From: a virus
Taxonomy: Duplodnaviria; Caudoviricetes
Length of the DNA: 54,648 nt
Reading direction: 5' to 3' (one strand)
Virus record (IMG/VR): IMGVR_UViG_3300023055_000119
Span: 1 to 54,648 of that record
How positions within the stretch are numbered: position 1 is the stretch's first letter; every line of letters starts with the position of its first letter. The position numbers and the translations under genes are program-made. Below, in pieces: positions 1 to 54,327 of this stretch. The notes beneath the pieces were generated by a model. The model was not told where the DNA came from and did no database searches. It saw nothing but the letters and a program-made list of their open reading frames with translations.

Positions 1-58
1 TACTGAATAAAGATCGCAGTCGGGCAAGACGGGCTGCAATCCACGGGGTAATTCGCAT
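1..58 (-). CDS. Partial CDS (5' end only), MRITPWIAARLARLRSLFS..., third gene of the leftward phage-like operon
   Basis: ATG at 58 with AAGGAGG SD a few nt upstream, directly after the stop of 69..401; runs off the window. Confidence 0.5.
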   Translation of the reverse strand, partial: MRITPWIAARLARLRSLFS

Positions 59-68
59 GATGCCCTCC

Positions 69-401
69 TTAACGCTTGGGTTGAGGTGGCGACTTATCTC
101 CTTCTGCCGGTTTCCCTTTGTCAGCCGGATTGCTGACCGGGTGCTTCACGGTGCCTTCGAGCTTGTTCTGCAGCGCCACCAGCTGGCTGGTAAGCTCCGC
201 CACGCGCGCTTCACGTCGTTCCGATATGGTTCGATATTGCTGTCGAATCTCTTCAACACGCTGATTGGCGCTGTTACTGACGAACAGGAATAGCACCGTC
301 ATCGCCACGCACATCAACGACAACATCAGCAAAAAGCCGCCGAAGAACAGTTGGCGCCGATGGTTTTTCACTACGTACTCACTGTTTATCTGCATCATCA
401 C
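69..401 (-). CDS. Phage-like membrane protein (single TM plus coiled coil), putative lysis-associated
   Basis: One hydrophobic helix then heptad-rich segment; overlaps 379..768. Confidence 0.55.
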   Translation of the reverse strand: MMMQINSEYVVKNHRRQLFFGGFLLMLSLMCVAMTVLFLFVSNSANQRVEEIRQQYRTISERREARVAELTSQLVALQNKLEGTVKHPVSNPADKGKPAEGDKSPPQPKR

Positions 402-768
402 GACTCTCCTCCAGAGTGGTAATCAGTTGGTTAACCTGGCTGCGAAACTTCTCGCTGTGCTCGGCTTCCGTGGTGGCCAGCAAAATGCTCAGGGCGTTTT
501 TTATCAGCCGCAGATCGGTTTCCAGCGAAGAGATACGCCGCAGGTTTTTGTCATGTCGGATGCGCAATTCATCGTTTTCCTGGCGCATCAAGGCGTGACC
601 TTCTTTGAGCAGCATCACCTGTTCTTTGTAACTGGTGATGATCTCCCCACCGGCACGATTGCTGGTGACGATAGCGGCGATACCCGCCATTAACGGTTTC
701 CAGAACACAGCTGCTGCGCCGCCGCCGAGAAGCAACGCACCTACGCTGGTGACTAAACTACTTTCCAT
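379..768 (-). CDS. Putative phage holin-like protein (N-terminal TM plus coiled coil)
   Basis: Hydrophobic N-terminus ALLLGGGAAAVFW, coiled-coil C-terminus, GAGG SD; resembles phage holin-like gene pairs from recall. Confidence 0.5.
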   Translation of the reverse strand: MESSLVTSVGALLLGGGAAAVFWKPLMAGIAAIVTSNRAGGEIITSYKEQVMLLKEGHALMRQENDELRIRHDKNLRRISSLETDLRLIKNALSILLATTEAEHSEKFRSQVNQLITTLEESRDDADKQ

Positions 769-846
769 GCTTCACCTCTCACCCCTGGCAAGGGATGTGC
801 CCCATAAGCACGCTGACCACCCTTGCCAGCTTCGCGGTCAACGCCT

Positions 847-888
847 GAATTTAAGTTTACTTTAACTTATGAATTTAAGTATACTTAA
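847..888. promoter_or_regulatory. Putative operators of the 913..1560 repressor
   Basis: Palindrome TTAAGTATACTTAA (875-888) and near copy TTAAGTTTACTTTA (851-864), 24 bp apart in the divergent intergenic region. Confidence 0.55.
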
Positions 889-912
889 GTCGTTCCTTCA
901 GGAGATGTCAAG

Positions 913-1560
913 ATGATGAAAAAAGAATCTTCCGGTGAGCGCATCCGGGCAAGACGTAAAGCACTACAGTTGACGCAGCAGGCGCTGGCCAAAAGCATTG
1001 GGGTGTCGCATGTGGCTGTATCGCAGTGGGAAAAAGAGGAAACCGTACCGCGTGGCGAGAATTTGCTGCGGCTCGCGCAGTGGCTGCAATGCACGGCGGC
1101 ATGGATTATCGACGGGGATGGCGAAGTGTTTGCCACCCACGCCAAAGCCGCACCGGTTGCGGCGGTGCCATTGATTAGCCTGGCGCAAGCGTCAGCGTGG
1201 CTGAGCGAGGAACGGTTGTTGCTCAAACAGCAGGCTGCGCATTTTCTCTATAGCGAGAGTCAGTTGGGCGATGGCGCGCTGGCGGTCACGATAGACGATC
1301 AGGCGATGCAGCCCGATTACCGGCCCGGTGACAAAGTGATCTTTGATCCTGACGTTCAGCCGCAGCCGGGCGATGTGGTGCTGGCGCTGGTGGATGGCGT
1401 GGCACGAGTGCGGATTTATCGCCTGCAAACGCAACAGCAGGATGAGCAGATCTTCACATTGCGCGCGTTGAATGATGATTTTCCGCAGCTGCATTCGGCG
1501 GAATCGGCGCTAGAAATTATCGGCACGCTGATGGAGTTGCGACGTTACCGAAGCGGCTAG
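913..1560 (+). CDS. XRE-HTH plus S24-like CI-type repressor, autocleavage residues degenerate
   Basis: HTH LTQQALAKSIGVSHVAVSQWE; C-terminal S24 fold (PGDKVIFDPD...GDVVLA...IIG). Confidence 0.85.
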   Translation: MMKKESSGERIRARRKALQLTQQALAKSIGVSHVAVSQWEKEETVPRGENLLRLAQWLQCTAAWIIDGDGEVFATHAKAAPVAAVPLISLAQASAWLSEERLLLKQQAAHFLYSESQLGDGALAVTIDDQAMQPDYRPGDKVIFDPDVQPQPGDVVLALVDGVARVRIYRLQTQQQDEQIFTLRALNDDFPQLHSAESALEIIGTLMELRRYRSG

Positions 1561-1680
1561 CCGCTTCGCTTAAGCTGTTATAATAAAAAAAGTTTAGCCT
1601 GATCGCGGGAAGCTATGGACAGACCCCGCGGTAAGGCTGCTAATCTAGCCGCAAAATAATAAATTATCCGGACAATCTCG

Positions 1681-2892
1681 ATGCTCACCACAATTATTTA
1701 CCGCAGCCATCTGCACGATCACGTGCCAATCAAAACGCTCGAAGATATGGTTGCTAAAGCCAATAGCAAAAACAAAAACTTCGACGTTACTGGCATCCTG
1801 CTGTTCGACGGCCTGCACTTCTTCCAGTTGCTGGAAGGACCGCGTGAGTCCGTTCAGGGCATATACAAGCGTATTTGTCAGGACGCACGCCACCATAATC
1901 TGGTGGAGTTAATGCACGACTTCGCGCCTGAACGCCGTTTTGGCAAAGTCGGCATGGAGCTGTTCGATCTGCGCGAGCATGACAAGGACACTGTGCTGCA
2001 AGCTGTGCTGGATAAAGGCACCTCGCGTTATCAGCTCACCTACAACGATCGCGCGCTGCAGTTTTTGCGTACCTTCGTGGTGGCGCGCGACAAAGAGAAC
2101 TACTTCGAGATCCCGCCAGCCAATACCTGGGAATTTGTTCCGGATATTGAATGGCAGAACGATCTGGAGGGTATCGATCAGAGCCTGCAGGATTGCCGCT
2201 TTGCTTTTCAACCCATCATCGATCCCTTCGCGCGCCGCGTCACTTCGTTTGAAGCGCTGATCCGCACGCCAAACGGTGGCTCACCCGATGAGTATTTCTC
2301 CGCGTTTGGCGGCGAAGCGATTTATCACGCGGATATCAAATCGAAACGTCTGGCCTTTCGCGTGGCGAACAAACTGGGCATTGGCGAGCATCGTCTGTCG
2401 ATCAACCTGCTGCCGATGTCACTGGTGACGGTGCCAAACGCGGTGGAATTCCTGCTTACTGAGATCAACGCCAGCGGGCTGGTGCCGCAACAGGTGATTG
2501 TCGAAGTGACCGAAAATGAGATCATTTCGCGCTCGGATGAATTTGCTGCCGAAGTGAGAAAGTTAAAAGCGGCGGGTATCAGCCTGGCGCTGGACGATTT
2601 TGGTGCCGGTTTTGCTGGCTTGTCGCTGTTATCGAAATTCCAACCGGACAAAATCAAAATCGATCGCGAGCTGATCCGCGATGTGCACAAAAGCGGCCCG
2701 AAGCAGGCGATCATGCACGCCATCATTAAGTGCTGCGCATCGCTGGAGATTGCGGTGATTGCCGAAGGTGTCGAGCAAGCTGAAGAGTGGATGTGGCTGG
2801 AAGCCGCAGGCATTAGCCAGTTCCAGGGTTTCCTGTTTGCTTATCCGCTGCTGAATGGATTCCCGGCTGTTGCATGGCCTGAGATTAAATAG
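1681..2892 (+). CDS. bluF: Blue-light/temperature sensor BluF (YcgF), BLUF plus degenerate EAL domain
   Basis: MLTTIIYRS, TGILLFDG.HFFQLLEG (BLUF); FQPIID, EAL, DDFGAG, IKID; 403 aa. Confidence 0.93.
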   Translation: MLTTIIYRSHLHDHVPIKTLEDMVAKANSKNKNFDVTGILLFDGLHFFQLLEGPRESVQGIYKRICQDARHHNLVELMHDFAPERRFGKVGMELFDLREHDKDTVLQAVLDKGTSRYQLTYNDRALQFLRTFVVARDKENYFEIPPANTWEFVPDIEWQNDLEGIDQSLQDCRFAFQPIIDPFARRVTSFEALIRTPNGGSPDEYFSAFGGEAIYHADIKSKRLAFRVANKLGIGEHRLSINLLPMSLVTVPNAVEFLLTEINASGLVPQQVIVEVTENEIISRSDEFAAEVRKLKAAGISLALDDFGAGFAGLSLLSKFQPDKIKIDRELIRDVHKSGPKQAIMHAIIKCCASLEIAVIAEGVEQAEEWMWLEAAGISQFQGFLFAYPLLNGFPAVAWPEIK

Positions 2893-2923
2893 TGTTGGTC
2901 GCCATGCATGGCGACCCCACCAA

Positions 2924-3631
2924 TCAGTAATACGTTACCTCAATATTGCCATACTGCTTATCAATCACGTTGCCTGCCGCGTCAACGCTAATAATGTCGC
3001 AATAATAGGGAACGTCGTGTTTGTATTTGCAGACATTGCTGACGGTTTTAATTTGGTCATTTCGCTTCACCGTGGTGACCACGTCAGAGATCTTTTTCTT
3101 ATCTTCTGCTCGCACCGCGGTAGCACGCGACACTTCCGTTCCGGCCTGGGTAATACTCAATACCGCCATTTCACCGGCGCTGTTATAAGCGAGGTGAAAA
3201 GCGGCATCGGAGGCGGGCGATGAGATCTGCTCGACCAAACCCTGTTTGTTATAGGCAATATCCACGGTCATGGTCGGCGTGACTTTCTTCACCATGGCGC
3301 AGTTCTTATCCAGCGTCACCACCACGTCCTGACCGTTTTCACTGCCTTTTAATTGGTCGCCATCGCGCGTGACATCAATCACTTCGCCCTGTTTGCGCAC
3401 CGATTTCACGTGCGTCGGACAGCCGTTGCGGTCAAAATCGACATTCACTTCGAAGATCTGCTGGCCGTCGGCGGTAAACAGCGTTTGATGGGTCGTTTTG
3501 ACTTTGCCGGGCAGCGCTTCGAATTGATACAAATAGGCAAAGTTTTTCATTTGCGAGTAGTAAGTCGCGTCATCCTTGTCACATCCCGTGAGCAGGAAAA
3601 TAGCGATTAAAAACAGCAGGGTTTTCTTCAC
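2924..3631 (-). CDS. YnfC/UPF0257-family lipoprotein
   Basis: Lipobox LLTGC; F..L.G.VK...QTL motif, conserved Cys pattern and terminal YY as in E. coli YnfC. Confidence 0.7.
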   Translation of the reverse strand: MKKTLLFLIAIFLLTGCDKDDATYYSQMKNFAYLYQFEALPGKVKTTHQTLFTADGQQIFEVNVDFDRNGCPTHVKSVRKQGEVIDVTRDGDQLKGSENGQDVVVTLDKNCAMVKKVTPTMTVDIAYNKQGLVEQISSPASDAAFHLAYNSAGEMAVLSITQAGTEVSRATAVRAEDKKKISDVVTTVKRNDQIKTVSNVCKYKHDVPYYCDIISVDAAGNVIDKQYGNIEVTYY

Positions 3632-3878
3632 GTGAGAATCCTCTTCTCAAAATAAGGCAACGCGGTGGCTGGAGTAACGTCTTAATCCTAAAAAGAACCT
3701 TCCCTCCTCCTGATAAGAAAATAGTCCCAATAGAGAACTATAACTTATTTAAGTTTTTATATTCACTATTTACTAGCAAAAACTCTCAAACTTTGAAAGT
3801 ACAAAAGTCGCCAATGAGCGACTTTATAAGTACTGATAATTAATGCATATGATACAAAGGCAATTTTTGATTTTTTTT

Positions 3879-4247
3879 CTACATTCTATTCGTAGATATC
3901 ATTAAATAACGCGTTAATCCGTTAGTTGCACTTTGCGAAGCTAATTGATTTTCTGCTATTAACCTGAATTTGTCAGAATTGCCACGCTGTTCACTATCAG
4001 ATGGTAAAACAGAATATTTAACTAAATCATGGCCGCCGTCATAAGAACACACCATTTCCCATTGTTGCGTTTTGCCCTTGGATGCCGCGCATTTTCCAGG
4101 ACCGTATGTGTACATTAAAAAGTTATTAGTTGTGTTCTCCGCCTTCAAAACATAGCCCGGCTTATCGTTGCTATAGGCAATTCCCGCAAAGACGAGAGTA
4201 GAAGCAAATAATATAGAGCTACCAATAACAGCAATTTTGGTTTTCAC
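3879..4247 (-). CDS. Hypothetical exported protein, AT-rich
   Basis: Signal-peptide-like N-terminus, Cys pair; 122 aa. Confidence 0.6.
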   Translation of the reverse strand: MKTKIAVIGSSILFASTLVFAGIAYSNDKPGYVLKAENTTNNFLMYTYGPGKCAASKGKTQQWEMVCSYDGGHDLVKYSVLPSDSEQRGNSDKFRLIAENQLASQSATNGLTRYLMISTNRM

Positions 4248-4739
4248 ATTAATATTCCATCATCATAGTAGATGATGATATCTTATAAGAATCGTCTTAG
4301 TTTTTCACTAGGTAAGCGTAAAAAATGTTAGTAGTTGTATCTGTGCTCGATTGATTGTATAGCCGCTTTTAAGACTCCTTGTTCTAAAACCTCATAACTG
4401 TACTAAATTTGACCAGGTGAATCCGTTATTTATATTTGACTATTAATGGTAGCAGCTATGATTCTTTATGAATAACCTAATGAAATGAATGGGATTTTTA
4501 TTACGCAAGAATAGTTACTATGGGGCATAATGATTAATATTTTTAATCAAATATCATAATTTAATCGAGTTTTGCTTACCATTAAATTAAGAAAATTGAT
4601 GATTGCAGTCACATCGCACCAAGTCACCAGCTCATTGTTTTGCTGAGAAATGAAAATAGGAACATTCTTGCAAAGGTTACGTATTTGTGACAAAAAGCCT
4701 GAATCGATTAAACTTACTTAACTCAAGATATCTTAAAGC

Positions 4740-6959
4740 ATGATCTACTTTTTATTTGCTGCCTTAATAACATTAACATTACTATCACCTAGGTTTATTG
4801 TAACTAAAACAATAATAACCTGCGTAGCATTATTGTTGTTTGCTTTTTGGTACGTTTGCAATATGTTCACTGGGCATGGGGTTACGGATGCAGTGTTCTA
4901 CCATTTGTTTGAGACTTCCACTGGCGCTTCAACAGAAGATTTAGTCCCAAAGATTAAGGTTGCAGCATTCTATATTATCTTGCTGATATTACTTGTTACC
5001 TATTGTACTCTAGTCTTATTGGGAAAAATCAAATCACTCTCCTTCAGGTTTACAGGGGGGATGTACGTTATCTGTCTTTCACTAATACTGAGTTCTGCAT
5101 TTGCTAAAAATATTTACCTATCAGTTAAAAACTCATTTTTAACAAAAGGAGATTCTAGTTTAGTAGAAAAAGAATACGCTAACATTTTAAATGAAAAGAA
5201 AGCCAGTAAAAAATATAATTATGTTTTTATTTATGCGGAAAGCTTAGAAAGAACATTCAGGGATTTGCGAGGGAAAAATCATTTACCCAAATTAAGTCAG
5301 ATTGCTGATAAATATATTGAGTTCACTAATATCATTCAACCTGCCGCATCTGGCTTTGGATGGACCATGGCCGGAATGGTCAATACTCAGTGTGGTATTC
5401 CGCTTGTCATGGCTCAGGGTAATTCTGGAGCAAACTTTGCTGAGTTTCTCTCCAATGCAAAATGCGTTGCTTCATGGTTTAATGAAAGTGGCTATAAAAC
5501 AGAATTTATAAGAGGAAGTGATAAAAATTTCGCCGGAGGGAATAAGTTTTTCTCTCAGCATGGATGGCAACGCCAGGATGACCTTGGGTATTTCAAAGAA
5601 ACGGGACAGGCAACATTATCGAATGTTAGTGGCTGGGGAATACATGATGACGCCATGCTTGACCATGCCTGGAATGAATTTCAGAGGCTCTCATCTTTAA
5701 ACACTCCATTTTTACTCTCTTTTTTAACAGTTAATACCCACGCGCCAGATGGATTTTTCTTGCCCGTTTGCAATGAAATGGTAAATCACTCAAATAAATA
5801 CGCTATTCTTTCTGCTGTTGAATGTTCGGATTATTTGCTTTCCGGCTTCATAAACAAAATCGTAAACAGTGAGCACTTTGACAACACAATTATTGTTTTA
5901 GTCTCCGATCATCTCATGATGGCCAATGATGCGTCCTCACTTCTTAATGAAGTGGAGAGTAAAAGAAGAAATAACTTTATTGTTATCAAGAAAGATATTA
6001 AACCTGCAAAGGTGGTAAAAGAAGGCACGCTTGTAGACGTGTGGCCCACGGTGTTTGATATATCCGGAGATAAAAAATCCGTTGGTTTCGGCAGAAGTCT
6101 GCTAGACAATGACTCTGATAACTTCGCTAAAGCTATTGCCAAAGGTGATATTTCAGATTATTTATCATTTTCGTCAGAACTTTGGGGGATCGTATCTTTA
6201 TCTAACGGGCTGTCTAAGGTTGGAGATTTTATTCAGATAGGTAAGCAGCAATACAAACTGCCCGTTTATGGCATGCTTGATGGAAACATAATTCATTCTC
6301 TTTGGTTTGAGGGATTTGCGAAAAATATAGTCAATATTGCAAAAAGTGAAGCGCCATTCTTCTATGCGAATATTTGCAAAAACATTGGAATCGACGATGA
6401 CACAATTTGCGCTTATATCGTAACAAAAGATGATATAACTAAAATGAGAATATCACCTAACGGGATTGTTTCCAGAAAGAAATTCGATAAATCAACCTTG
6501 TTTTATCGCGACAATATTTTGGGAGTGTCATCCGCACCATTTTATATGGATACAGGATTTTCAGACGGAGCTGTAGATAATTTACCTAGCGGAATAAATT
6601 TTTACACGATTGAACACGGAAAGTTAAACCTAAATGCATCATATCAAACATGTATACATCAACAAGTTGATTCCGAAACCGTGCAAAATATTTTGAAAAA
6701 AAATAAACCTTTGATTGTCGCCTCAAGCGACTCAGTTTACTGCGGAGAAAAAGAGAGTTATTCAACGTTATCTCAGGTACTATCTACTGGTACTTTTGAT
6801 AAATTACAATTCCTGCAGCAAACGATCGGAGTATATAATGCAGGAAAATCCTCTTCGCTTTTAGGTTTACCTTTACTGCCACTGGATGGTTTTATCGATC
6901 TGCAAAAAGGTAAAATTTTCAGTGTTTGCCAGGCTTTTGATGACTGCGTAACACATTGA
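4740..6959 (+). CDS. OpgB/MdoB-like phosphoglycerol transferase (sulfatase/LTA synthase superfamily), AT-rich
   Basis: N-terminal TMs; IYAESLERTF, WTMAGMVNTQCGIPL, FLTVNTHAPDG, VSDHL motifs. Confidence 0.8.
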   Translation: MIYFLFAALITLTLLSPRFIVTKTIITCVALLLFAFWYVCNMFTGHGVTDAVFYHLFETSTGASTEDLVPKIKVAAFYIILLILLVTYCTLVLLGKIKSLSFRFTGGMYVICLSLILSSAFAKNIYLSVKNSFLTKGDSSLVEKEYANILNEKKASKKYNYVFIYAESLERTFRDLRGKNHLPKLSQIADKYIEFTNIIQPAASGFGWTMAGMVNTQCGIPLVMAQGNSGANFAEFLSNAKCVASWFNESGYKTEFIRGSDKNFAGGNKFFSQHGWQRQDDLGYFKETGQATLSNVSGWGIHDDAMLDHAWNEFQRLSSLNTPFLLSFLTVNTHAPDGFFLPVCNEMVNHSNKYAILSAVECSDYLLSGFINKIVNSEHFDNTIIVLVSDHLMMANDASSLLNEVESKRRNNFIVIKKDIKPAKVVKEGTLVDVWPTVFDISGDKKSVGFGRSLLDNDSDNFAKAIAKGDISDYLSFSSELWGIVSLSNGLSKVGDFIQIGKQQYKLPVYGMLDGNIIHSLWFEGFAKNIVNIAKSEAPFFYANICKNIGIDDDTICAYIVTKDDITKMRISPNGIVSRKKFDKSTLFYRDNILGVSSAPFYMDTGFSDGAVDNLPSGINFYTIEHGKLNLNASYQTCIHQQVDSETVQNILKKNKPLIVASSDSVYCGEKESYSTLSQVLSTGTFDKLQFLQQTIGVYNAGKSSSLLGLPLLPLDGFIDLQKGKIFSVCQAFDDCVTH

Positions 6960-7197: not shown

Positions 7198-7497
7198 CTA
7201 AATTGTCGGCCTGTCATCCTCATGCATGGTAGTGATTTCATGCGTCACCACTCCCACCACCGCAATATCTTCCAGCAGGTCGTCCATCAGGAATGCGCCA
7301 TCATCGGTAATGAGTCGCCGAGGATGAATCATGATCATCGCCCACTCATACATACCTGACATATCAATCAGCACAGTGTCACCGTTTACCGGGTAACGCT
7401 GCTTATCGATTATGCACCTGCGGCCATTTATCTCGACCATGCTGGAAGTCTCGCGCGTGGACAGGATGTGCTGCAGCGGCTGTAGCAGAAACGTCAC
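7198..7497 (-). CDS. UmuD'/HumD-like protein without N-terminal arm or catalytic Ser/Lys
   Basis: GRRCIID..PVNGDTVLIDMSG..IAVVGVVTHEI aligns by eye with the UmuD C-terminal fold; GTG start overlaps the umuC TGA (alternative ATG at 7440). Confidence 0.6.
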   Translation of the reverse strand: MTFLLQPLQHILSTRETSSMVEINGRRCIIDKQRYPVNGDTVLIDMSGMYEWAMIMIHPRRLITDDGAFLMDDLLEDIAVVGVVTHEITTMHEDDRPTI

Positions 7498-8756
7498 TTC
7501 GCCACTGGCAGGTCCGACAGTCTGGTTGTGTATGCCGGCGACAACATTTCTCGCTTCATCTCCCAGGATTTCTGGATACCCTGTCCTGCAAACCATAATT
7601 TCCCCTTCCCGCTCTGGTTGAGGCCGTCAACGACACGCATCAGCGATTCGCTGTTGGCCTGTGGTTTGTATTCATCAAAGAGATTGAGCTGAGACACGCC
7701 CTGGCTGTAAAAGTCGCCCAGCATCACGCCTGCTTTCATATACCGGCACCCGTCGCGCCATATGTGGTCGAGGCCCTGCATGGCAACCCGTATGATGTCG
7801 CGTGTGTCGTTGGAGGGAGTGAGAAGCCTGCCCATCGCCTGATTGCCATAGAACACCTCTCCTTCAGCGTGCGGGCTTGTACGGACGAACACCGCTATCT
7901 GTCGGCAATACTGGCGCTCACGCCTCAGCTTCTCAGCAGCGCGTTCTGCGTACGAGCAAACCGCCTGGCGCATGTCCATGTACTCGGTGATGCGCGAACC
8001 GAACGATCGGGAGCAGACAATCTGCTGTTTGGTCGGGGCGAACTCTTCCAGTTCGAGGCACGGCTCGCCGCGCAGCTCACGCACCGTTCTCTCCAGCACC
8101 ACATTGAAGTGCTTCCGGATGATGTATGTACTTTGCTCTGACAGGTCTTTGGCGGTGATGATGCCCATTGCATTTAGCTTTTTGCTGATGCGGCGACCAA
8201 CGCCCCAGACATCCTCTACCGGTACCAGCGCCATCAGCTTTTTCTGCCGATCAACATTAGACAGGTCAACGACGCCGCCGGTCTGCTTCCACTTCTTCGC
8301 GGCGTGATTGGCGAGCTTGGCGAGCGTTTTGGTCTGTGCAATACCAACACCGACGGTCAGATGCGTGTCTCGCTTGATTCGCTCCCTCACCTCGCGTCCA
8401 AAGTCTTCCAGTACACGACAATTTCGGACGCCGGTCAGGTCGAGGAATGCTTCGTCGATGGAGTAAACTTCTACCGATGGCGCCATCTGCTCCAGCGTCG
8501 TCATAACCCGGTTCGACATGTCAGCGTAGAGCGCATAGTTGCTGCTGAACACGTGAATCTTGTGCCGGCGGATTTCGTCCTTTAGCTTGAAGTAAGGCGC
8601 ACCCATAGGGATTTTCAGCTCTTTAACTTCTGCACTACGGGCGATCACACAGCCGTCGTTGTTGCTCAGAACCAGTACCGGTTTGCCGCGCAAATCAGGC
8701 CTGAAAACCGTCTCGCAGCTGGCGTAAAACGAGTTTACGTCAACGAGCGCAAACAT
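7494..8756 (-). CDS. umuC: Y-family DNA polymerase V catalytic subunit
   Basis: MFALVDVNSFYASCE, SNNDGCVIARS, YSIDEAF, SRSFG, C-terminal LSPAYTT. Confidence 0.95.
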   Translation of the reverse strand: MFALVDVNSFYASCETVFRPDLRGKPVLVLSNNDGCVIARSAEVKELKIPMGAPYFKLKDEIRRHKIHVFSSNYALYADMSNRVMTTLEQMAPSVEVYSIDEAFLDLTGVRNCRVLEDFGREVRERIKRDTHLTVGVGIAQTKTLAKLANHAAKKWKQTGGVVDLSNVDRQKKLMALVPVEDVWGVGRRISKKLNAMGIITAKDLSEQSTYIIRKHFNVVLERTVRELRGEPCLELEEFAPTKQQIVCSRSFGSRITEYMDMRQAVCSYAERAAEKLRRERQYCRQIAVFVRTSPHAEGEVFYGNQAMGRLLTPSNDTRDIIRVAMQGLDHIWRDGCRYMKAGVMLGDFYSQGVSQLNLFDEYKPQANSESLMRVVDGLNQSGKGKLWFAGQGIQKSWEMKREMLSPAYTTRLSDLPVAK

Positions 8757-8995
8757 CACATGCCGCCGTTTGGATTGAATACCTGAAACACGCGCTCATC
8801 ACCTTCCGATGTCGAAATATCGCGGAATACTGACTTGTGAGCCTCGATCCAGTTATTCGCTTGCCGTGGCGTGTAATGCCAGTTCAGGCGCTCAAGTTCA
8901 CTGACAAAGTCGAGTGTGCTTACGGTGTAGCGGCCAGCAGCATCGCGTTTGATTGCGAACCTGAAGGCGTCTTTGATTTCGTAGTCGCGGGGCAT
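8756..8995 (-). CDS. 79-aa hypothetical protein in the position normally held by umuD
   Basis: GGAGGGAG SD; TGATG overlap with the umuC start; no UmuD similarity. Confidence 0.8.
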   Translation of the reverse strand: MPRDYEIKDAFRFAIKRDAAGRYTVSTLDFVSELERLNWHYTPRQANNWIEAHKSVFRDISTSEGDERVFQVFNPNGGM

Positions 8996-9017
8996 GGTCA
9001 TCTCCCTCCATGATAGA

Positions 9018-9037
9018 TACTGTATATATATACAGTA
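9018..9037. promoter_or_regulatory. LexA (SOS) box, perfect consensus
   Basis: TACTGTATATATATACAGTA, overlapping the -10 of a leftward TTGATC-N18-TACTGT promoter. Confidence 0.95.
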
Positions 9038-9189
9038 ATATCGATCGGTGGGATCGATCAAGTCGATTGATGGTGGTTTTTGCGAAGGGATTGGCGGGGA
9101 AGGAAATTTAGGTGGGCGACTCCGGAGTGAGTGACTAAGCTTTAATCACACACCCCGTAGCCTGCATGAAGATGGACGCGGTATTAAGC

Positions 9190-9473: not shown

Positions 9474-10508
9474 ATGAGCAGAATTGCATATATAGATCAT
9501 ATGAAATCGATTGCGATTTTACTCGTAATTCTTACCCACGCTCATGAGTTTGCAGGGGTTAAAAATCCAACAATACTAAGCCTTCTATATTCGATTGATA
9601 GGATTGGCGTACCTCTATTTCTGATTACATCCGGGATATTGACAATTAAGCGAGCCGCCACAGAAGGCCTTAATTATATTAAACTGGGCGTGCTTATTCA
9701 GCTAATGGCACTACTAATAATCTTTTCAGTATTTACAAATGGATTATATAACAATCTTATTTTAAAAATACCTTTTGCCGATTCATTCGTCAGAGCGATT
9801 GAATTTAATAACATTGTGATGTATGGCGAGAATCATAACGCCATACATCTTTGGTATCTTTTTTTATAAATACCAATGTACGCGCTGGCCCCTTTCATCG
9901 GAAAGCTTTCTGTAAGCTGCACTAAAAATGAGTTGTTGGTTTTTATGATTATCTGCATTCTTTTAAACCAGTTACCAAGAACAATCGAGATAGTTACAGG
10001 ACAAAAAATATTCCTTAATTCATTTTACACAGACTTCACTGGTTCATTTTTGCTTTTTTATGTGTTTGGGTACTGGTATGTGTTTAAGAATGGGGGTGGA
10101 TCAATCTCGTTGCTTGGTGCGTTGGGGTGTGGCGCTGTTGCACTTTCAATAATAATTGCAAAATGTATTTATGAAACAAAATACGGCATCAGCTTCCTTT
10201 TGAACTGGTACAATAATTCATTGAGCATACTAGCACTTGGAGTAATCTCATTTATTATTCTGTATAGAATCACAAAGAACTCCTCAAACTCAGCTCTATC
10301 TGGGTATATTTCAAATCTGTCATTTGGCGTATACCTAATTCATTTGATTTTCATAATCATAGCTAAGTACTACATTTTAAATCTTGAAATAACTAGCAAC
10401 CCGTATCTGATTATGATGTTGCTTTTTGCAGCGGCAACACTATCGTTTCCTGTTGTAAAATTCATGTCTAGTTACAAGGCATTAAGATGGCTCTCAGGAT
10501 TTAGGTAA
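9474..10508 (+). pseudogene. Acyltransferase-3 family (O-antigen/surface glycan acetylase-like), split by one in-frame TAA at 9867-9869
   Basis: RIAYID.MKSIAILLVILTH, RIGVPLF, HLWYL, SFGVYLIH motifs; both halves are in the same frame. Confidence 0.85.
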
Positions 10509-10539: not shown

Positions 10540-12444
10540 TTAAACCGATGGAGTTTGACGCCAATTTGTTCCATCAAAGACGTACATCATGGTATCTCCA
10601 CCACTAAGTGTTTTGTCGCTGGCCCCATTGTTAGCTATGCCGCCATTGCCCGGGTTGTGTCGCATGACAAAGGCTATCGCTGCTGAATTTCTAATTATGA
10701 GGAGGAAACCCGGGCGTACAGGTTGACCATAGTCGTCGTTGACGGAAATACTGCCAAATGTACTTCCAGTAGATGTTGCCGAAACCGCTACAACTCCTGT
10801 AGCCCCGAGACTGTCACCAACTATCATATTGGCGTTAGTGCCGGTTACTTGCTGTTCTTTGTAGCCAGGCCTTGGCTTGCCCGCGCCTATAACTTTCGCC
10901 TTAACTGATGATAACCTGTTGTTTAGGTAATTATTACCCAGGTTAAGAGTCATTAAATCGCTACCGTATTGGCGAACGAGCTGGATATTTGAGCCATTAA
11001 AAAGCCCTACAGCATTACTAACTTCAGCAGCGGTGTCGGCGGGCGCGCCACTTTTTAGCGATCCGTAAAACCCCGTCACCATTAGCTGCTCACAGAACCC
11101 TGCAGCCAGAAACTTCTGGCTACTGACTGCTGTGATATTGTTAAGGCTAACGTTGTAGAGTGTACCAGCCTTGGTTCCTTCAACCAGAACGTCGGCATAG
11201 GTTGATCCGGAGTAATTAGCGCCATTTACTTGAACGTCATTCGCTACATTTTCTGATTTGATGCGCATATGAATAGATGTGCCAGTACTTTGCAGGTTAG
11301 AGCATGTCACTCGCTCTAACTGTGCAGTTGTGCTGTAAACCCAAACACCCTGACTGCAAACACCGTTTCCAATGTTTATATGCCCATCAAGAACTACATT
11401 CTTTGCCGTGCTGTAATCGGCGTCCGATTTGATGATTACGCCAGTGTCACAACTTACAGAAATTATGCTTTGAGCAATTACATTCCTGCTTTTAATAGCT
11501 AATCCAAAAAGATTATATGCTGCGGTAACGAGGCTGATATGTGCCGAATCATACCCCTCAACCAGAACTGCATGATACTGATCGCTACTTGATAAACCCG
11601 AGCAGACAATATTTCTGACCCGCGCAGATGCTCCGGCAGTATTATTTGTAGAAAGGATGAGACAGTCACCAGCTGATCCTGCATCCCTCTTAATTCCTAG
11701 ATTTTCAACAACTACCTGAGGAGATGAGATTCGAAGGTTACCAATAATAATGCTGCCTTTGGACATGGTGTTCGTTGACCAGTTATAGTCAGGAACTCTA
11801 TCCCCGATGATTGCTATCGGTACAGTAATTACGCCACCTTTCCATACGTAGGACTTAGCGGGAATTCGTAATGCAATTCCCCTGGCAGCACAATACGTTA
11901 TTGCCTGTTGAATGGCTGTCGTATCGTTTGTTACACCATCGCCTTTGGCTCCAAAATCATCAGGAGTTTTATAGCCAAATTTAAACAGATTAATTTCCTC
12001 CTGGACAGTTTTGCCAGATTCTGTTCGCGACAGTCCCGCCCCGGTATTTTCATTGAGATTAGACCGTAAAGATGCATCTCCAACACCGACCCATTTTCCA
12101 CTTCCAATGCCGCCAGCACTATCTGGAGTAGAGCCAGCGGGCACTACTTTGGGGAGGGTGCCGTCCCAGCGGTAGAACTCTCCGTTCGCTTTCCAGCGCA
12201 AGCACTCGTTAGCAAGGCTAATGGTGCCGCCATCCTCAAAAGAATCCTTCGTGATATAGCCATATTTCAGCATTGCCTGATTTGCATCGTAATTTATGCC
12301 TTCAATTGTACGATGTGTTCCCCCAAGTCGGTCAATGTATTCATGACCTTCCGAAGTAACAAACTCATCAATTTTACCTGCATTGAACTTAAGGTCGCGT
12401 GGTGATTCGCTAGGTACAGCGTTGTTTGTTGGTTGCGTAGCCAT
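10540..12444 (-). CDS. Tailspike with virion-binding N-terminus and pectate-lyase-like beta-helix
   Basis: MATQPT..VPSESPRDLKFNAGKIDEFV; DFGAKGDGVTNDTTAIQ.A; N/S/G-rich beta-helix. Confidence 0.88.
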   Translation of the reverse strand: MATQPTNNAVPSESPRDLKFNAGKIDEFVTSEGHEYIDRLGGTHRTIEGINYDANQAMLKYGYITKDSFEDGGTISLANECLRWKANGEFYRWDGTLPKVVPAGSTPDSAGGIGSGKWVGVGDASLRSNLNENTGAGLSRTESGKTVQEEINLFKFGYKTPDDFGAKGDGVTNDTTAIQQAITYCAARGIALRIPAKSYVWKGGVITVPIAIIGDRVPDYNWSTNTMSKGSIIIGNLRISSPQVVVENLGIKRDAGSAGDCLILSTNNTAGASARVRNIVCSGLSSSDQYHAVLVEGYDSAHISLVTAAYNLFGLAIKSRNVIAQSIISVSCDTGVIIKSDADYSTAKNVVLDGHINIGNGVCSQGVWVYSTTAQLERVTCSNLQSTGTSIHMRIKSENVANDVQVNGANYSGSTYADVLVEGTKAGTLYNVSLNNITAVSSQKFLAAGFCEQLMVTGFYGSLKSGAPADTAAEVSNAVGLFNGSNIQLVRQYGSDLMTLNLGNNYLNNRLSSVKAKVIGAGKPRPGYKEQQVTGTNANMIVGDSLGATGVVAVSATSTGSTFGSISVNDDYGQPVRPGFLLIIRNSAAIAFVMRHNPGNGGIANNGASDKTLSGGDTMMYVFDGTNWRQTPSV

Positions 12445-39940: not shown

Positions 39941-40173
39941 GCCCCCTCCCTACCATCACTATCGGTTAATCGTCTGGCGTTGTTTATCGCTTGGCGCATG
40001 GCGATATCCCATGCATATGCAGAAACAATCATTTCAGTGGCGATCCGGTCAGATAACTCAATTATCTTGGCGTGATCCAAGCGGATGGACTCCAGGATGC
40101 ACCACCGAGAGTCAGGATGGAAATCTGACATGTAGGCCTCAATTACTAGCCAGTCGTTATCGTCGATAATCAA
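39937..40173 (-). CDS. Hypothetical protein
   Basis: TTG start overlapping the loader stop. Confidence 0.5.
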   Translation of the reverse strand: MIIDDNDWLVIEAYMSDFHPDSRWCILESIRLDHAKIIELSDRIATEMIVSAYAWDIAMRQAINNARRLTDSDGREGA

Positions 40174-41045
40174 GCGCCACCCCGCGAACGATACGAATCC
40201 CAAGTAAAGGCCAGCGTACAGCCTCCGCCGTCGTTCATGCGGTCGATGACGCGCTCACCGATGAAGGCTGACAGCTCTTCCAAGGGCAGGTTGCTAATCA
40301 GGATGGTTGGCTTCATCTGCTCGTAACGTGTGTTGATTACTTCGAACAGGATTAGCTTTTCCGACTCGCTGCCGAACTGCACGCCAACCTCATCGATGAT
40401 TAACAGGTCGGGATCGGTGTAGGCGTGGATCACATCGTACTCGGTGCGCTCGGCGTTCTTACCCCATGTGGATTTAAATGCTCGAGCAACACGTAATGCC
40501 GTTGTAAACATCGCCGCTTGCTGGTGCTCGTTGATGACGTGCTTTGCGATCGACAGCGCCAGATGATTCTTTCCGGTACCGGGCTTGCCGCACATAACAA
40601 GCCCACCGCCCTGCTTGCGACGATCTGCCCATTTCGATGCGTAGGCTTTGCAGAGTTTTAGGCATCGGGCCGCTTCAGGGTTAACCGGCTGATAGTTATC
40701 CAGGGTGGCTTCGCTAAAGCGCTGCGGCAAATTTAGATCACACATCAGGCGCGTGATAATGCTGTCCTTGCGGCGATCTTCGATGGCTTGAGTGTCGCTT
40801 TTCAGGATAGCCAGCCGCTCACGAAGGCACGCTTCGCATTCGCTTTTCGTGGAGATCCCGGCGTTGCCTAGACTCATGCGGCGAACGCGCTGCTCGAATG
40901 AGCCGTGTTTTTCGCAGACAGCAGAGACAATTTCGAAAACAGTATTTTCGATTTGAGGCGGCGGCGCGCTTAGTTCGTCAAGCTGACGCTGAACCTTTGC
41001 GATTTTGTCGCGGTTTTCGCTAGCCATTGAATCGTGATAATTCAT
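40170..41045 (-). CDS. DnaC/IstB-like helicase loader
   Basis: GKPGTGKNHLA, LLIIDEVG, ISN, R..DR. Confidence 0.9.
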   Translation of the reverse strand: MNYHDSMASENRDKIAKVQRQLDELSAPPPQIENTVFEIVSAVCEKHGSFEQRVRRMSLGNAGISTKSECEACLRERLAILKSDTQAIEDRRKDSIITRLMCDLNLPQRFSEATLDNYQPVNPEAARCLKLCKAYASKWADRRKQGGGLVMCGKPGTGKNHLALSIAKHVINEHQQAAMFTTALRVARAFKSTWGKNAERTEYDVIHAYTDPDLLIIDEVGVQFGSESEKLILFEVINTRYEQMKPTILISNLPLEELSAFIGERVIDRMNDGGGCTLAFTWDSYRSRGGA

Positions 41046-41917
41046 GATTGCTCCCTAGCCCATGCAGGCTCTTGAGTCTGACCGTAGTCTTTGGCGGCAA
41101 AGTTCTCAGCCACGGCGCGTGTTGGTGCAGCTGCTGGTTTGTAGGCTGGCTTAGCCCCGAACTTGGCTGCGTTTCTCAACCAGTTATTCAGGGCTTTGTT
41201 CCAGTCAGTAAACTTTGAGCCTTTGGCCTGATGGTGATCAGCGAACGCATCAAACTCGCGTTCAAGATTTACGCCTAGCTCCTTGGCTAATTCACGGTTG
41301 CGATCATTTGGCTCAAGAGCTTTGGGGAACTGGCATTGCCGTTTTTGTTTGGCAGGCTCGTCAGGAACATCGGAAGGGACTACAGGGTTAATATTGTTTT
41401 TGTCTTTACTGTCTTTTGTAGAATTGTCTTTTGTGTTTAACAGATTCTGTAAACCCTGTTTTACTGATTCCGTAAATGTTTCCTTTACAGATTCTGTAAA
41501 GTTTACAGTTTCTGTAATATTTACTGATTCTGTAATGACAGGTTTACTGATTGTGTGAAACTTGGTGTCCCAAGCACTGATTTCTTTGTTGATGCCAATC
41601 AGGCGCCCATTCATGGCTAGAACTTTCATCTTGATTAGCTTATTGCGTTCCGTGCTGCACCGGGTTTCAGGTAACCCGGTTAGTTCGGAGAGTTGAGCGT
41701 TCCCTACCCAATCGGATGTTTTGTTATACCCGTATGTTTTGCGAATAACCGCCAAGGTGATCAGCATCTGGTTCTGAGTTAACCCAGCGCCTATAACAGC
41801 CTCTAGCAGCTCATTAGCGATACGGGTGAAACCATTATCGGTATCAACCACGCGACGCTCCACGACCTGCAGATCAGGCCTGATAGGTGAGACGTATTTA
41901 AGGGCAGCTTCAGCCAT
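41042..41917 (-). CDS. Replication initiator (lambda O-like)
   Basis: GFTRIANELLEA, IRKTYGYNK..DW; internal iterons. Confidence 0.9.
   Translation of the reverse strand: MAEAALKYVSPIRPDLQVVERRVVDTDNGFTRIANELLEAVIGAGLTQNQMLITLAVIRKTYGYNKTSDWVGNAQLSELTGLPETRCSTERNKLIKMKVLAMNGRLIGINKEISAWDTKFHTISKPVITESVNITETVNFTESVKETFTESVKQGLQNLLNTKDNSTKDSKDKNNINPVVPSDVPDEPAKQKRQCQFPKALEPNDRNRELAKELGVNLEREFDAFADHHQAKGSKFTDWNKALNNWLRNAAKFGAKPAYKPAAAPTRAVAENFAAKDYGQTQEPAWAREQS
41438..41558. repeat. Replication origin iterons
   Basis: 5-6 copies of near-palindromic TTAC(A/T)GATTCTGTAA at about 41438, 41461, 41485, 41503, 41521, 41544 next to an AT-rich tract. Confidence 0.85.
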
Positions 41918-41929
41918 AAAAGCCCCCTT

Positions 41930-41963
41930 TACTGTTTACATATCCAGTTAGTCCTGGCATTAT
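41930..41963 (+). promoter_or_regulatory. pO-like promoter with LexA box
   Basis: CTG-tttacatatc-CAG (41932-41947) over TTTACA-N17-CATTAT, same arrangement as lambda pO. Confidence 0.7.
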
Positions 41964-42734: not shown

Positions 42735-43367
42735 ATGAGCCTTGCAGATCGGGTTAAACAAAGAAGATTAGAGCTGCGCCTTACTCAGACAGAAGTCGCA
42801 GAAAAAGCGGGGATCACTCAGCAGTCTTGGGCTAGTATTGAGGATGGAAAGACCCTCAAACCTCGTAATATCGTTGGTATGGCCGAAGCGCTTAATTGTG
42901 ATCCTGCATGGCTCATGAATGGCGGCACGCTTGTTCCGGTAGGCGAGGTGAATACAAGGAGGATTCCCTTGATCAATTACGTTCAGGCTGGCGCGTTAGC
43001 CACCAAACCAGCAATAGAGGCTATGGACGGCAGCTATGAATATGTGCTCACCGACATGGACTGGTCACAATACACATTTGCTTTGAAGATCGTGGGCGAC
43101 TCAATGGAGCCTGATTTTAAGGCCGGGGACGTGATCGTAGTCGACCCTGAAATAGAGCCAGCGCCAGGCGAATTTGTTGTCGCTAAGAATGGAGAACACG
43201 AAGCCACTTTCAAAAAGTATCGGCCTACCGTCTTCTCTCCTGAAGGTAAGCAGCACTTCGAACTAGTACCGCTCAACGATGACTATCCAACTATGAAGAG
43301 CGTAGAAAGAGAGATTAAAATCATCGGCACCATGGTTGAACATCGCATCTACAGACGAAAACGTTAA
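42735..43367 (+). CDS. cI: CI repressor, RecA-cleavable
   Basis: HTH plus intact Ala-Gly (VQAGA), Ser (GDSM) and Lys (FKKY). Confidence 0.93.
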   Translation: MSLADRVKQRRLELRLTQTEVAEKAGITQQSWASIEDGKTLKPRNIVGMAEALNCDPAWLMNGGTLVPVGEVNTRRIPLINYVQAGALATKPAIEAMDGSYEYVLTDMDWSQYTFALKIVGDSMEPDFKAGDVIVVDPEIEPAPGEFVVAKNGEHEATFKKYRPTVFSPEGKQHFELVPLNDDYPTMKSVEREIKIIGTMVEHRIYRRKR

Positions 43368-52760: not shown

Positions 52761-53009
52761 ATGGAAAACGTTATTCAACTGGCGCCAAGTAAATGGGTGT
52801 CGGAATCTGTACTCATGGCGATAACCGGCATGAAGAAAAACACCATCAAAACTGCCCGCGAAGTGTCATGGATGGAGGGGCGAGAATACAAACACGTCGC
52901 GCCGGACGGCATCCCCTATGACAACAGCATGTGTTTTTACGACTGGAAGCTCATAGAGAAATGGATTGAGAAGCAACCGCCGGCGATCCCCCGCAAGAAA
53001 TCTGCTTAA
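52761..53009 (+). CDS. Excisionase
   Basis: VIQLAP.KWVSE..L.A.TG....I..AR..SWMEGREY.HV, directly upstream of int. Confidence 0.82.
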   Translation: MENVIQLAPSKWVSESVLMAITGMKKNTIKTAREVSWMEGREYKHVAPDGIPYDNSMCFYDWKLIEKWIEKQPPAIPRKKSA

Positions 53010-53040
53010 ATGTGCTTCCCTTTCACAGCGAGGAAATGAG

Positions 53041-54327
53041 ATGGCTAAATACCCGACCGGGGTTGAGGCTAATGGCAACAACCTGCGCATCTGGTTCACA
53101 TGGCAGGGAGCTAGGCGCAGGGAGCAGCTGAGCGTGCCAGATACCCCAAAGAACAGAAAGTTGGCAGGAGAGCTTCGGGCAAACATCGTTTACCAGATCA
53201 AGACAGGCACTTTCGATTACCGCGATAGCTTCCCCGAGTCACAGCTATTTAAAGGAGAAGTAAGGGAGGATGAAAGGTTCACAATAAAGCAGGTTGCCCA
53301 AAAATGGCTGAAGCTGAAACAAACGGAGATAGCTCACAGCACCTACTGCACTTATGAGCGGCGCATGCGCGTAACCATTGAAATGTTAGGAGAGGATCGT
53401 CCGGTAAAAACCATCACTGGCGAACACTTGCTGGAACTAAGAAACGAGCTTCTTACCGGTTACCAATGTGAAGGAAGAAAACATAGCATAATAAAGAAAG
53501 GAAGATCGGCTGCCACGGTGAATGGCTGCATGTCTGACCTGTATGCAATATTCAAATTCGCGCTGGATAATGGGTACATAACCAAAAACCCGATGGCAAA
53601 CATTAGCATTCTCCGTAAGGAACGGAAGAAACCTGATCCACTAACCCGAGAGGAATTTCCGCGCGTCATTCATTGTTGCAGAAACCGTCAAATTGCTAAT
53701 CTCTGGAGTCTGGCCGTTTTAACTGGCCTGCGTCACGGTGAATTGTGCGCACTCGCCTGGGAAGATATTGATCTGCAGGAAGGCTACCTGATGGTGAACC
53801 GCAACCTCACAAATGAGGATCGATTTACCCCACCCAAAACAAGGTCGAGCACAAACCGCAAGGTCTGTCTGGTGAATCCCGCAATTGAAATATTGCGCGA
53901 CCAGATGGAGCTTACAAGAATGAACCGTCCATCGATCATCAAGGTCGAGACGCGGGAATACAATTCAGCAGAAGATGAGGAATGCACATTCGTATTCAAC
54001 CCTCGCCTTTTTGCGATCAACAGCCGAGCGGGAGATTATTACTCTGTTGCGTCACTACGACAGACGTGGACAGCTGCATTGAAAAAGGCAGGCATTCGAC
54101 ATCGTAAGGCGTACCAATCCAGGCACACATTCGCATGCTGGTCTCTAGCTGCTGGCGCAAACCCAAATTATGTAGCCGCACAAATGGGACACGCTAATTC
54201 GCAAATGGTCTACCTGGTTTACGGAACATGGATGCAGGAAAACAACGATGAGCAAGTGAGCCTAATTAACTCAAAATTTGCTGACGTTGCCCTACATATG
54301 CCCTATCGCAAAGCATCAGGAGGATAA
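53041..54327 (+). CDS. int: Tyrosine integrase with N-terminal arm-binding domain
   Basis: TGLRHGE, YQSRHTFA, MGH, VYG catalytic motifs. Confidence 0.95.
   Translation: MAKYPTGVEANGNNLRIWFTWQGARRREQLSVPDTPKNRKLAGELRANIVYQIKTGTFDYRDSFPESQLFKGEVREDERFTIKQVAQKWLKLKQTEIAHSTYCTYERRMRVTIEMLGEDRPVKTITGEHLLELRNELLTGYQCEGRKHSIIKKGRSAATVNGCMSDLYAIFKFALDNGYITKNPMANISILRKERKKPDPLTREEFPRVIHCCRNRQIANLWSLAVLTGLRHGELCALAWEDIDLQEGYLMVNRNLTNEDRFTPPKTRSSTNRKVCLVNPAIEILRDQMELTRMNRPSIIKVETREYNSAEDEECTFVFNPRLFAINSRAGDYYSVASLRQTWTAALKKAGIRHRKAYQSRHTFACWSLAAGANPNYVAAQMGHANSQMVYLVYGTWMQENNDEQVSLINSKFADVALHMPYRKASGG

Follow-up and report, generated by a model that had tools for sequence, protein, structure and literature searches.

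The stretch of DNA analysed here, 54,648 nucleotides (nt) in length and called the window below, is a complete IMG/VR virus record of a lambdoid prophage, the nearest protein relatives of which bear Pantoea names. It contains a three-gene operon built around umuC, the gene for the catalytic subunit of DNA polymerase V (Pol V), and the last gene of this operon, an open reading frame (ORF) of 99 amino acids that we call ORF99, is a genuine, highly reduced UmuD′ homologue without the catalytic dyad. On balance, we lean towards reading the operon as a Pol V module in the style of phage P1 HumD, which would require LexA cleavage and dispense with UmuD processing. The operon and its control elements are the following.

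9056–9061, minus strand: TTGATC, a −35-like hexamer read from the sequence, 18 nt upstream of the LexA box
9018–9037, no strand assigned: LexA (SOS) box TACTGTATATATATACAGTA, a perfect palindrome and the sole exact match in the window
9002–9009, minus strand: Shine-Dalgarno-like sequence GGAGGGAG for ORF79, about 6–9 nt before the ATG at 8995
8756–8995, minus strand: ORF79, 79 amino acids, a predicted winged helix of phrog_3893 (translation, profile match)
7494–8756, minus strand: umuC, 420 amino acids, Y-family polymerase and Pol V catalytic subunit, apparently intact (Pfam, NCBIfam)
7198–7497, minus strand: ORF99, 99 amino acids, a mini-UmuD′-like S24 beta-core (phrog_3469, hhalign, AlphaFold2)

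From the profile comparisons, ORF99 matches the 'UmuD-like' PHROG 3469 with an E value of 4.8e-15 (residues 9–98 on profile positions 18–105 of 106), and hhalign aligns it with UmuD over 100 columns at 97% probability (E 8e-11), with an 11-residue gap exactly over the Ser loop and a Met at the Lys position. When aligned with full-length prophage UmuD, the whole mini-UmuD′ family is seen to be without the SGDSMxxGGIxDG loop of the nucleophilic Ser, and the general-base Lys is mostly substituted; the S24 Ser-Lys dyad is absent from ORF99, as are the N-terminal arm and any CG or AG cleavage site. Many members of this family begin with MGFPSPA, which corresponds to the residue after the Cys-Gly cleavage site of UmuD, as in P1 HumD. 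Such starts are seen in the sister proteins of ORF99 of about 105 residues, while ORF99 itself starts with (V/M)TFLLQPLQ and not with the HumD-type GFPSPA.

The AlphaFold2 model of ORF99, with a predicted local distance difference test (pLDDT) value of 87.3, has the S24 C-terminal beta-fold. Its nearest neighbours by VIA are the UmuD′ structures 1umu_A (Z 10.9, root-mean-square deviation 3.3, 88 aligned residues) and 1ay9_A (Z 10.8), followed by UmuD in the RecA filament (8gmt_A, Z 10.4) and then by the C-terminal domains of lambda CI and LexA; Foldseek ranks the same structures first, with E values no better than 2.5e-3. In the structural alignment, residue 1 of the model corresponds to residue 33 of UmuD′. 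A sequence search of the PDB with ORF99 returned nothing. A first-pass annotation, made from the letters alone, had described the protein downstream of umuC as a UmuD C-terminal fold without the arm and without a recognisable Ser or Lys, and had proposed HHpred and Foldseek comparisons of both small proteins. Comparisons of this type bear the description out, returning UmuD′ for ORF99 and a generic winged helix for ORF79.

A profile search of 1.84 billion representatives with ORF99 gave 31 clusters at E values up to 1e-3, all of 51–132 residues, and a word-indexed search gave 26 close clusters, whose organism names, where given, are Pantoea. Most of the homologues have an ATG at the same overlap with the umuC stop and conserve the first 19 residues, which argues that the 99-residue form is real. 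The internal Met20, used as the start by some gene callers, is replaced by Leu in many homologues, and readings of 132 and 80 residues were ruled out by the homologue alignment.

ORF99 is a short protein in which the N-terminus and the catalytic residues have been lost; it gives no Pfam match, many related operons do without it, and of its start one lineage retains only about 25 nt. These features could be taken to mean that it is a decaying, functionless umuD remnant. Such decay, a possibility that the first-pass annotation had raised against its own proposal, is nevertheless very improbable. The pairwise dN/dS ratio has a median of 0.17 over 250 pairs (interquartile range 0.13–0.22), as calculated from 24 distinct 297-nt alleles of loci L011–L041 with the 279- and 300-nt alleles and the window copy excluded, and the N-terminal codons 2–20 are under constraint as well (0.24). 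Conservation extends to the start/stop overlap and, among homologues of 65–98% identity, to 33 invariant columns; the fold prediction is confident, and related mini-UmuD′ forms are also present in other genera. Since homology, model and dN/dS agree, we regard ORF99 as a real gene, kept by selection, whose product is a minimal UmuD′ core and protease-dead.

The polymerase to which it is coupled contains the Pfam domains IMS, IMS_C, IMS_HHH and DUF4113 and belongs to the NCBIfam family UmuC (NF002955), with 770 bits at a cut-off of 431. Residues D6, D101 and E102, together with Q356 and F360 of the QLNLF clamp motif, are invariant in the homologue alignment. The stop TGA of ORF79 (8758–8756) overlaps the umuC ATG (8756) within ATGTGATG, and the TGA stop of umuC overlaps the GTG start of ORF99 in GTGA (7497–7494), so that the three genes are indeed chained by stop/start overlaps at both junctions, as the letters had suggested at first sight. 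Equally, no umuD is found in the operon, and the slot upstream of umuC holds the non-UmuD protein ORF79. A genome-wide PF00717 scan found other Peptidase_S24 genes of the record only as helix-turn-helix (HTH) repressors, at 913–1560 and 42735–43367.

The perfect LexA box noticed in the first pass was confirmed by scanning the 54.6-kb window with TACTGT-N8-ACAGTA, which gave this one exact match; it agrees with the E. coli LexA consensus TACTG(TA)5CAGTA. Judged from the sequence, TTGATC would be the −35 element of a promoter whose −10 region is covered by the LexA box. A generic promoter scan did not call this promoter. In most of 27 upstream regions compared, which were picked among loci having a box, (C)TTGATC stands at equal spacing, and the distance from the box end to the ORF79 ATG, 24 nt in the window, is 16–25 nt. 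A CTGT-N8-ACAG box lies 35–41 nt ahead of the first gene in 36 of 36 viral loci collected around ORF99, in all 70 loci with upstream sequence collected around ORF79 and in 22 of 26 loci from named species. With a box that overlaps the candidate promoter and is conserved family-wide, the operon is a putative member of the LexA regulon. At up to two mismatches the window has 3 matches against 0.95 expected, a number at chance level (8 of 100 shuffles reach 3); one such site, TACTGTTTACATATCCAGTT at 41930–41949 with 2 mismatches, is located just upstream of the replication O gene.

Normally, Pol V becomes active only after RecA* has promoted two cleavages in turn, of LexA first and of UmuD afterwards. 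In the HumD-style module that we favour, DNA damage would lead to LexA cleavage and thereby open the promoter with the SOS box over its −10 region, and a single mRNA would give rise to three translationally coupled proteins. UmuC would act as an intact Y-family translesion polymerase, with ORF99 most likely replacing the UmuD′2 subunit on its C-terminal tail, and ORF79 would most likely be a protein partner or regulator on the UmuD′/UmuC/RecA* axis. Because ORF99 would be produced already 'processed' and uncleavable, the RecA*-assisted cleavage of UmuD would become unnecessary, and the polymerase would need LexA inactivation but no UmuD cleavage. The logic would be that of phage P1 HumD, for which the P1 record notes a LexA site and states that it 'functionally complements E. 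coli UmuD′'.

That a mini-UmuD′ works with UmuC as UmuD′ does is suggested by the recurrence of diverged subtypes directly after umuC. Three subtypes (30–36% identity) each occupy this position in Pantoea phages; two of them, the ORF99 subtype and an 89-residue one with its GTG or ATG inside the umuC stop, overlap umuC at the start, and the third begins past a short gap. The same conclusion is supported by umuC deletions that spare just the C-terminal tail, reported in PMC6511836 to be the main UmuD′ binding site, and by the precedent of P1 HumD. A predicted complex of UmuC and ORF99, with ORF79 entered as the partner, reached 0.00 where the mark was 0.32, and was used neither for nor against the assembly.

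We have compared the gene order at 36 viral loci anchored on ORF99, representatives of which were read in detail. The order of the window, ORF79-umuC-ORF99, was found in 21 loci, and in 2 more with an apparently frameshifted umuC. A full-length umuD (146 residues, with SGDSM and the Lys) stands between ORF79 and umuC in 6 of the 36, and 2 have umuD-umuC-ORF99 without ORF79. In the other 5, ORF79 and ORF99 are accompanied only by the last 47–57 codons of umuC, leaving 31 of 36 loci with umuC upstream of ORF99. This remnant, located between the ORF79 and ORF99 homologues of L042–L046 at about 3822–4000, is the DUF4113 tail, and in L042 it lies inside a 68-residue ORF.

A second set was anchored on ORF79 and drawn from the 80 nearest of 181 viral loci, 12 of them cut by contig ends and 68 classifiable. 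Among the latter, ORF79-umuC with nothing after it is the commonest arrangement (29 loci), followed by the window form (21), ORF79-umuC with another mini-UmuD′ subtype (8), ORF79-umuD-umuC-ORF99 (5), ORF79-umuD-umuC (3) and truncated umuC (2). In L064 and L130, which have ORF79-umuD-umuC without ORF99, about 25 nt resembling the ORF99 start (GTGAAGTTTACTACTGCC...) follow the umuC stop, suggesting a past deletion of ORF99. The protein P0113 (L146–L154, around 3501–3600) resembles an in-frame fusion, about 33 N-terminal residues being those of the ORF79 N-terminus and the rest a mini-UmuD′. The identities of the three genes are uncoupled from each other, with ORF79 at 100%, UmuC at 87% and ORF99 at 97% in one locus and 77%, 98% and 94% in another, a pattern that fits modular recombination. 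The constants of the cassette, which is carried by prophages and plasmids of Enterobacterales, are the LexA box and ORF79, and its variables are umuC, umuD and the pre-truncated UmuD′ forms.

Outside Pantoea, ORF79 normally directly precedes a HumD-like or mini UmuD′ gene, with no umuC; this applies to the majority of the other Enterobacterales prophages and to about 1,000 plasmids. Among 26 loci in named-species genomes, 22 have ORF79 followed within a few bases by a UmuD′-like gene, which is a mini form (104–107 residues) in 14, HumD-like (124–130 residues) in 6 and disrupted in 2; the product starts with MGFPSPA or a near variant in 21 of these 22 pairs. One of the remaining loci has umuD-umuC after ORF79, and three have nothing detectable there. 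The host genomes of such pairs encode umuC elsewhere in all 10 cases checked, full length in 8. A canonical umuD precedes 8 of the 11 full-length copies and a HumD-like gene 1, the other 2 having neither, and no copy is found beside ORF79. In L169 (1498–2757) and L170 (1501–2754), the intact host umuC has no recognisable umuD or small ORF upstream.

The pair of ORF79 and a UmuD′-like gene is also present in the isolated phages mEp390, phiES15, vB_EhrS_59, Eeyore and vB_EcoS-733R5; HK225 has ORF79 without the UmuD′-like gene, and a divergent dinI adjoins ORF79 in mEp390, Eeyore and HK225. CobraSix and Oslo carry a short UmuD′-like gene upstream of umuC, and PHB10 and ENT39118 a full umuD. Homologues of ORF79 are found in 1,083 plasmid records, 954 of them conjugative, mostly from Klebsiella, Escherichia and Enterobacter, including IncX3 plasmids, and often near insertion sequences. 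In three enterobacterial plasmids examined (IncFIB, IncR and IncX3), ORF79 is followed by a UmuD-like/S24 gene, with no umuC. Of 61 genomes of Pantoea species, 46 contain ORF79 and 58 contain umuC, the latter in strikingly high number, with up to 9 umuC matches per genome, many of them partial. Among 5,426 complete E. coli genomes, 45 contain the pair of ORF79 and mini-UmuD′ at a query coverage of at least 80%, the copies being annotated as hypothetical or as S24/S26 peptidase. A megablast search of E. coli genomes with the mEp390 cassette returned nothing.

Several of these results weigh against the HumD-style module. ORF99 scores 15.7 bits against the NCBIfam family HumD (NF051876), far from its cut-off of 120, and thus falls outside that family, and it has no match to Pfam PF00717 (S24) at E values up to 1. 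Residues 25–32 of UmuD′ and one surface loop are absent from ORF99, and its binding to UmuC may be altered for this reason. ORF99 occurs together with a full-length, cleavable umuD in 8 of the 36 ORF99-anchored loci, 6 with and 2 without ORF79, and can therefore not simply be a UmuD substitute. No UmuD′-like gene follows umuC in 34 of the 68 classifiable ORF79-umuC operons, nor in a 575-kb Pantoea agglomerans plasmid, where ORF79-umuC is followed by ycgZ. Finally, umuC is beside the pair in none of the 22 named-species loci, so the small proteins may there act on host factors and not on a cis-encoded polymerase.

The coexistence with cleavable umuD, the many operons without a UmuD′-like gene, the frequency of the pair without umuC and the dinI next to it in coliphages are also compatible with modulation of host UmuD/UmuD′ or RecA*. 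ORF99, and perhaps ORF79, could then be SOS modulators and not polymerase subunits: a dead UmuD′ could serve as a decoy in the RecA* groove, or form a heterodimer with host UmuD or UmuD′, thereby adjusting the processing of UmuD, the amount of Pol V or prophage induction, with umuC as separate cargo of a moron slot. We consider this unlikely. In its favour, the pair lacks umuC in those 22 of 26 named-species loci (2 of them disrupted) and in plasmids, the 10 host genomes checked have their own umuC, most copies with a canonical umuD, and the coliphage pair stands back to back with a homologue of dinI, whose product binds the RecA filament. The ORF99 model superposes on filament-bound UmuD (8gmt_A), and the CI of the prophage is an S24 repressor and a would-be RecA* target. 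It is harder to reconcile with three mini-UmuD′ subtypes directly after umuC, two of them with a stop/start overlap, with umuC deletions that retain the UmuC C-terminal tail, and with the annotated precedent of P1 HumD substituting for UmuD′.

The first-pass proposal of a phage mutasome, with the 79-residue protein as an extra subunit or regulator, survives in part. A dyad-less UmuD′ that is coupled to umuC, is under selection and lies behind a universal LexA box stands; a fixed three-subunit unit is too narrow, since the trio, far from being conserved together, takes the window form in 21 of 68 ORF79-anchored loci. Because the trio is variable and the pairs outside Pantoea lack umuC, ORF99 is not a simple UmuD replacement and ORF79 is not specific to the Pol V of the window, to which it had been tied.

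ORF79 matches PHROG 3893 over its full length (E 5.3e-33, residues 1–78 of 79), and has no Pfam (E up to 1), NCBIfam or PADLOC match. Its homologues, which form 579 protein clusters, all begin with MPR, and an alternative ATG at 9001 is unused among them. NCBI labels these homologues 'DNA polymerase V', a name that is misleading; in PMC7317114, on Erwinia temperate phages, it is called a hypothetical protein that bears this name in the entries of homologues. The AlphaFold2 model (pLDDT 83.1) has the topology H-b-H-H-b-b, the last two strands forming a beta-hairpin, which makes it a winged helix. Its structural neighbours are generic winged-helix proteins, with a best Foldseek E value of 0.045 and a best VIA Z of 6.5 (none reaching 8). 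Searches of BFVD and the ESM Atlas returned only its own family, and a PDB sequence search gave chance-level matches only.

In view of its position and tight coupling, ORF79 is most likely a protein partner or regulator on the UmuD′/UmuC/RecA* axis, and its fold permits DNA binding. The nearest structures are mostly DNA-binding winged-helix proteins (PadR, Fur, IclR, FOX and Sso10a), ORF79 is always the first gene behind the promoter, and it occurs without umuC or a UmuD′-like gene in HK225, L135 and L139; together with the predicted topology, this would suit a winged-helix transcription factor that is not physically linked to Pol V and regulates the operon, or else further genes of phage or host, as a second tier of control. 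Such a role is rather doubtful, since the isoelectric points of the family are near neutral (median 6.45, range 5.0–8.2), which is unusual in DNA binders, the 27 aligned upstream regions have no conserved second operator besides the LexA box, the structural matches are generic, and ORF79 tightly abuts or overlaps the next gene.

A 'split LexA', with ORF79 as the N-terminal domain and the UmuD′-like protein as the C-terminal domain, divided at the cleavage site, was also considered and rejected: hhalign gave a probability of 0.2% against LexA N-terminal domains, and only the broad fold class is common to both. ORF79 is not Lxr of P1 either, as lxr is a divergent gene of 190 codons for an unrelated protein.

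A bolder idea, tentative and in our judgement improbable, makes ORF79 a third Pol V component of mobile elements, a LexA-controlled winged-helix adaptor for pre-truncated, non-cleavable UmuD′ that in Pantoea would work directly with UmuC and replace the functions of the UmuD arm or of RecA*-dependent activation. If so, prophages and conjugative plasmids would switch on or tune error-prone synthesis without the cleavage checkpoint of the host, and no natural accessory subunit of Pol V would be smaller than the loop-deleted mini-UmuD′.

Among known systems, the likeness to P1 HumD that had been pointed out in the first pass holds in concept, and N15 gp26 is of this kind as well. HumD is a mobile-element-borne, LexA-controlled, pre-truncated UmuD′ with no need of RecA*-assisted processing, and it starts after the UmuD cleavage site, as do the ORF99 sister proteins with their MGFPSPA start. 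However, HumD has 129 residues and keeps the loop, whereas ORF99 has lost both the loop and the GFPSPA start and is located after umuC; moreover, P1 has no ORF79, the divergent neighbour of humD being lxr. With umuDC, mucAB and rumAB the operon shares the LexA box, a Y-family UmuC with beta-clamp motif and C-terminal tail, a small subunit of S24 fold and overlapping genes. In those canonical operons umuD precedes umuC, and UmuD has 139–146 residues with a Cys/Ala-Gly site and the Ser-Lys dyad, whereas the window has an uncleavable small subunit after umuC and a non-homologous winged-helix gene in the upstream slot.

The impCAB operon of plasmid TP110 (Lodwick et al. 1990) is reportedly likewise a three-gene Pol V operon with a small gene ahead of the umuD and umuC homologues. 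ORF79, which at E values up to 1 matches neither DinI nor any other Pfam family and in the coliphages has dinI as a separate neighbour, is therefore not an ImpC, a protein of the DinI family. In Acinetobacter, UmuDAb and DdrR combine a UmuD-family protein with a small, lineage-restricted protein in the control of error-prone polymerases, according to PMC11332147 and PMC7273328; UmuDAb, however, is a repressor that has its full length and can be cleaved, and the genus has no LexA, whereas the present cassettes have intact LexA boxes and a truncated UmuD-like protein. The Gram-positive YolD/YqjX proteins, small and non-UmuD, are encoded upstream of the UmuC-like polymerases UvrX/YqjW, are SOS-regulated and often prophage-borne, and have been proposed as a UmuD analogue (PMC6511836). 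YolD is predicted to be an SH3-like beta-barrel, in contrast to the alpha/beta winged helix predicted for ORF79, which has no YolD Pfam match.

SOS-controlled umuDC-like modules on mobile elements, including the pre-truncated HumD, are thus an already known kind. The first-pass annotation had put the system forward as its best candidate for an undescribed one; phrog_3469 ('UmuD-like') and phrog_3893 are already in the databases, so that the two families are uncharacterised rather than unseen, and no functional study of either was found in the literature, supplements aside. What appears to be new is the loop-deleted minimal UmuD′ family, its place after umuC and the ubiquitous winged-helix first gene ORF79. 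Pre-truncated UmuD′ genes are a large modular family that includes a minimal, loop-less form of 89–107 residues and is almost always headed by the 79-residue winged-helix gene behind a consensus LexA box. Mobile elements that carry a ready-made, uncleavable UmuD′ would lift the second brake on Pol V, and knowledge of the function of ORF79 would help to explain the influence of phages and plasmids on stress-induced mutagenesis in their hosts.

The remainder of the prophage has the following landmarks.

9474–10508, plus strand: O-acetyltransferase gene
10540–12444: tailspike
40170–41917: replication O and DnaC-like loader
42735–43367: CI repressor, HTH and Peptidase_S24
52966–54327: integrase

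The cassette stands at the prophage end opposite the integrase. In related viral contigs (for example L014) the integrase directly adjoins the cassette, which indicates that the cassette occupies the usual accessory-gene slot near the attachment site. No att repeats of at least 12 nt were found between the two prophage ends examined. Positions 1–6959, with HTH-S24, BLUF-EAL, UPF0257 and sulfatase-family genes, look like host flank; within them, the plus-strand region 913–2892, where an HTH and Peptidase_S24 repressor-like protein of 215 residues adjoins the BLUF-EAL protein, looks like host DNA or another element outside the prophage proper. A PADLOC scan for defence systems gave no matches.

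The O-acetyltransferase gene encodes an O-antigen-type acyltransferase (Pfam Acyl_transf_3) in two same-frame ORFs, 9474–9869 and 9876–10508, split by a stop at 9867–9869; one metatranscriptome contig has a 1-nt insertion at 10002. Searched at the nucleotide level, the cassette of the window gave no match among phages, plasmids or E. coli genomes. Four metatranscriptome runs yielded contigs that span the operon, but these cover both flanks equally and are no proof of transcription; DNA carry-over is possible. In one of these contigs, 9 substitutions are clustered at 7426–7527, across the umuC/ORF99 junction, which fits strain-level mosaicism there.

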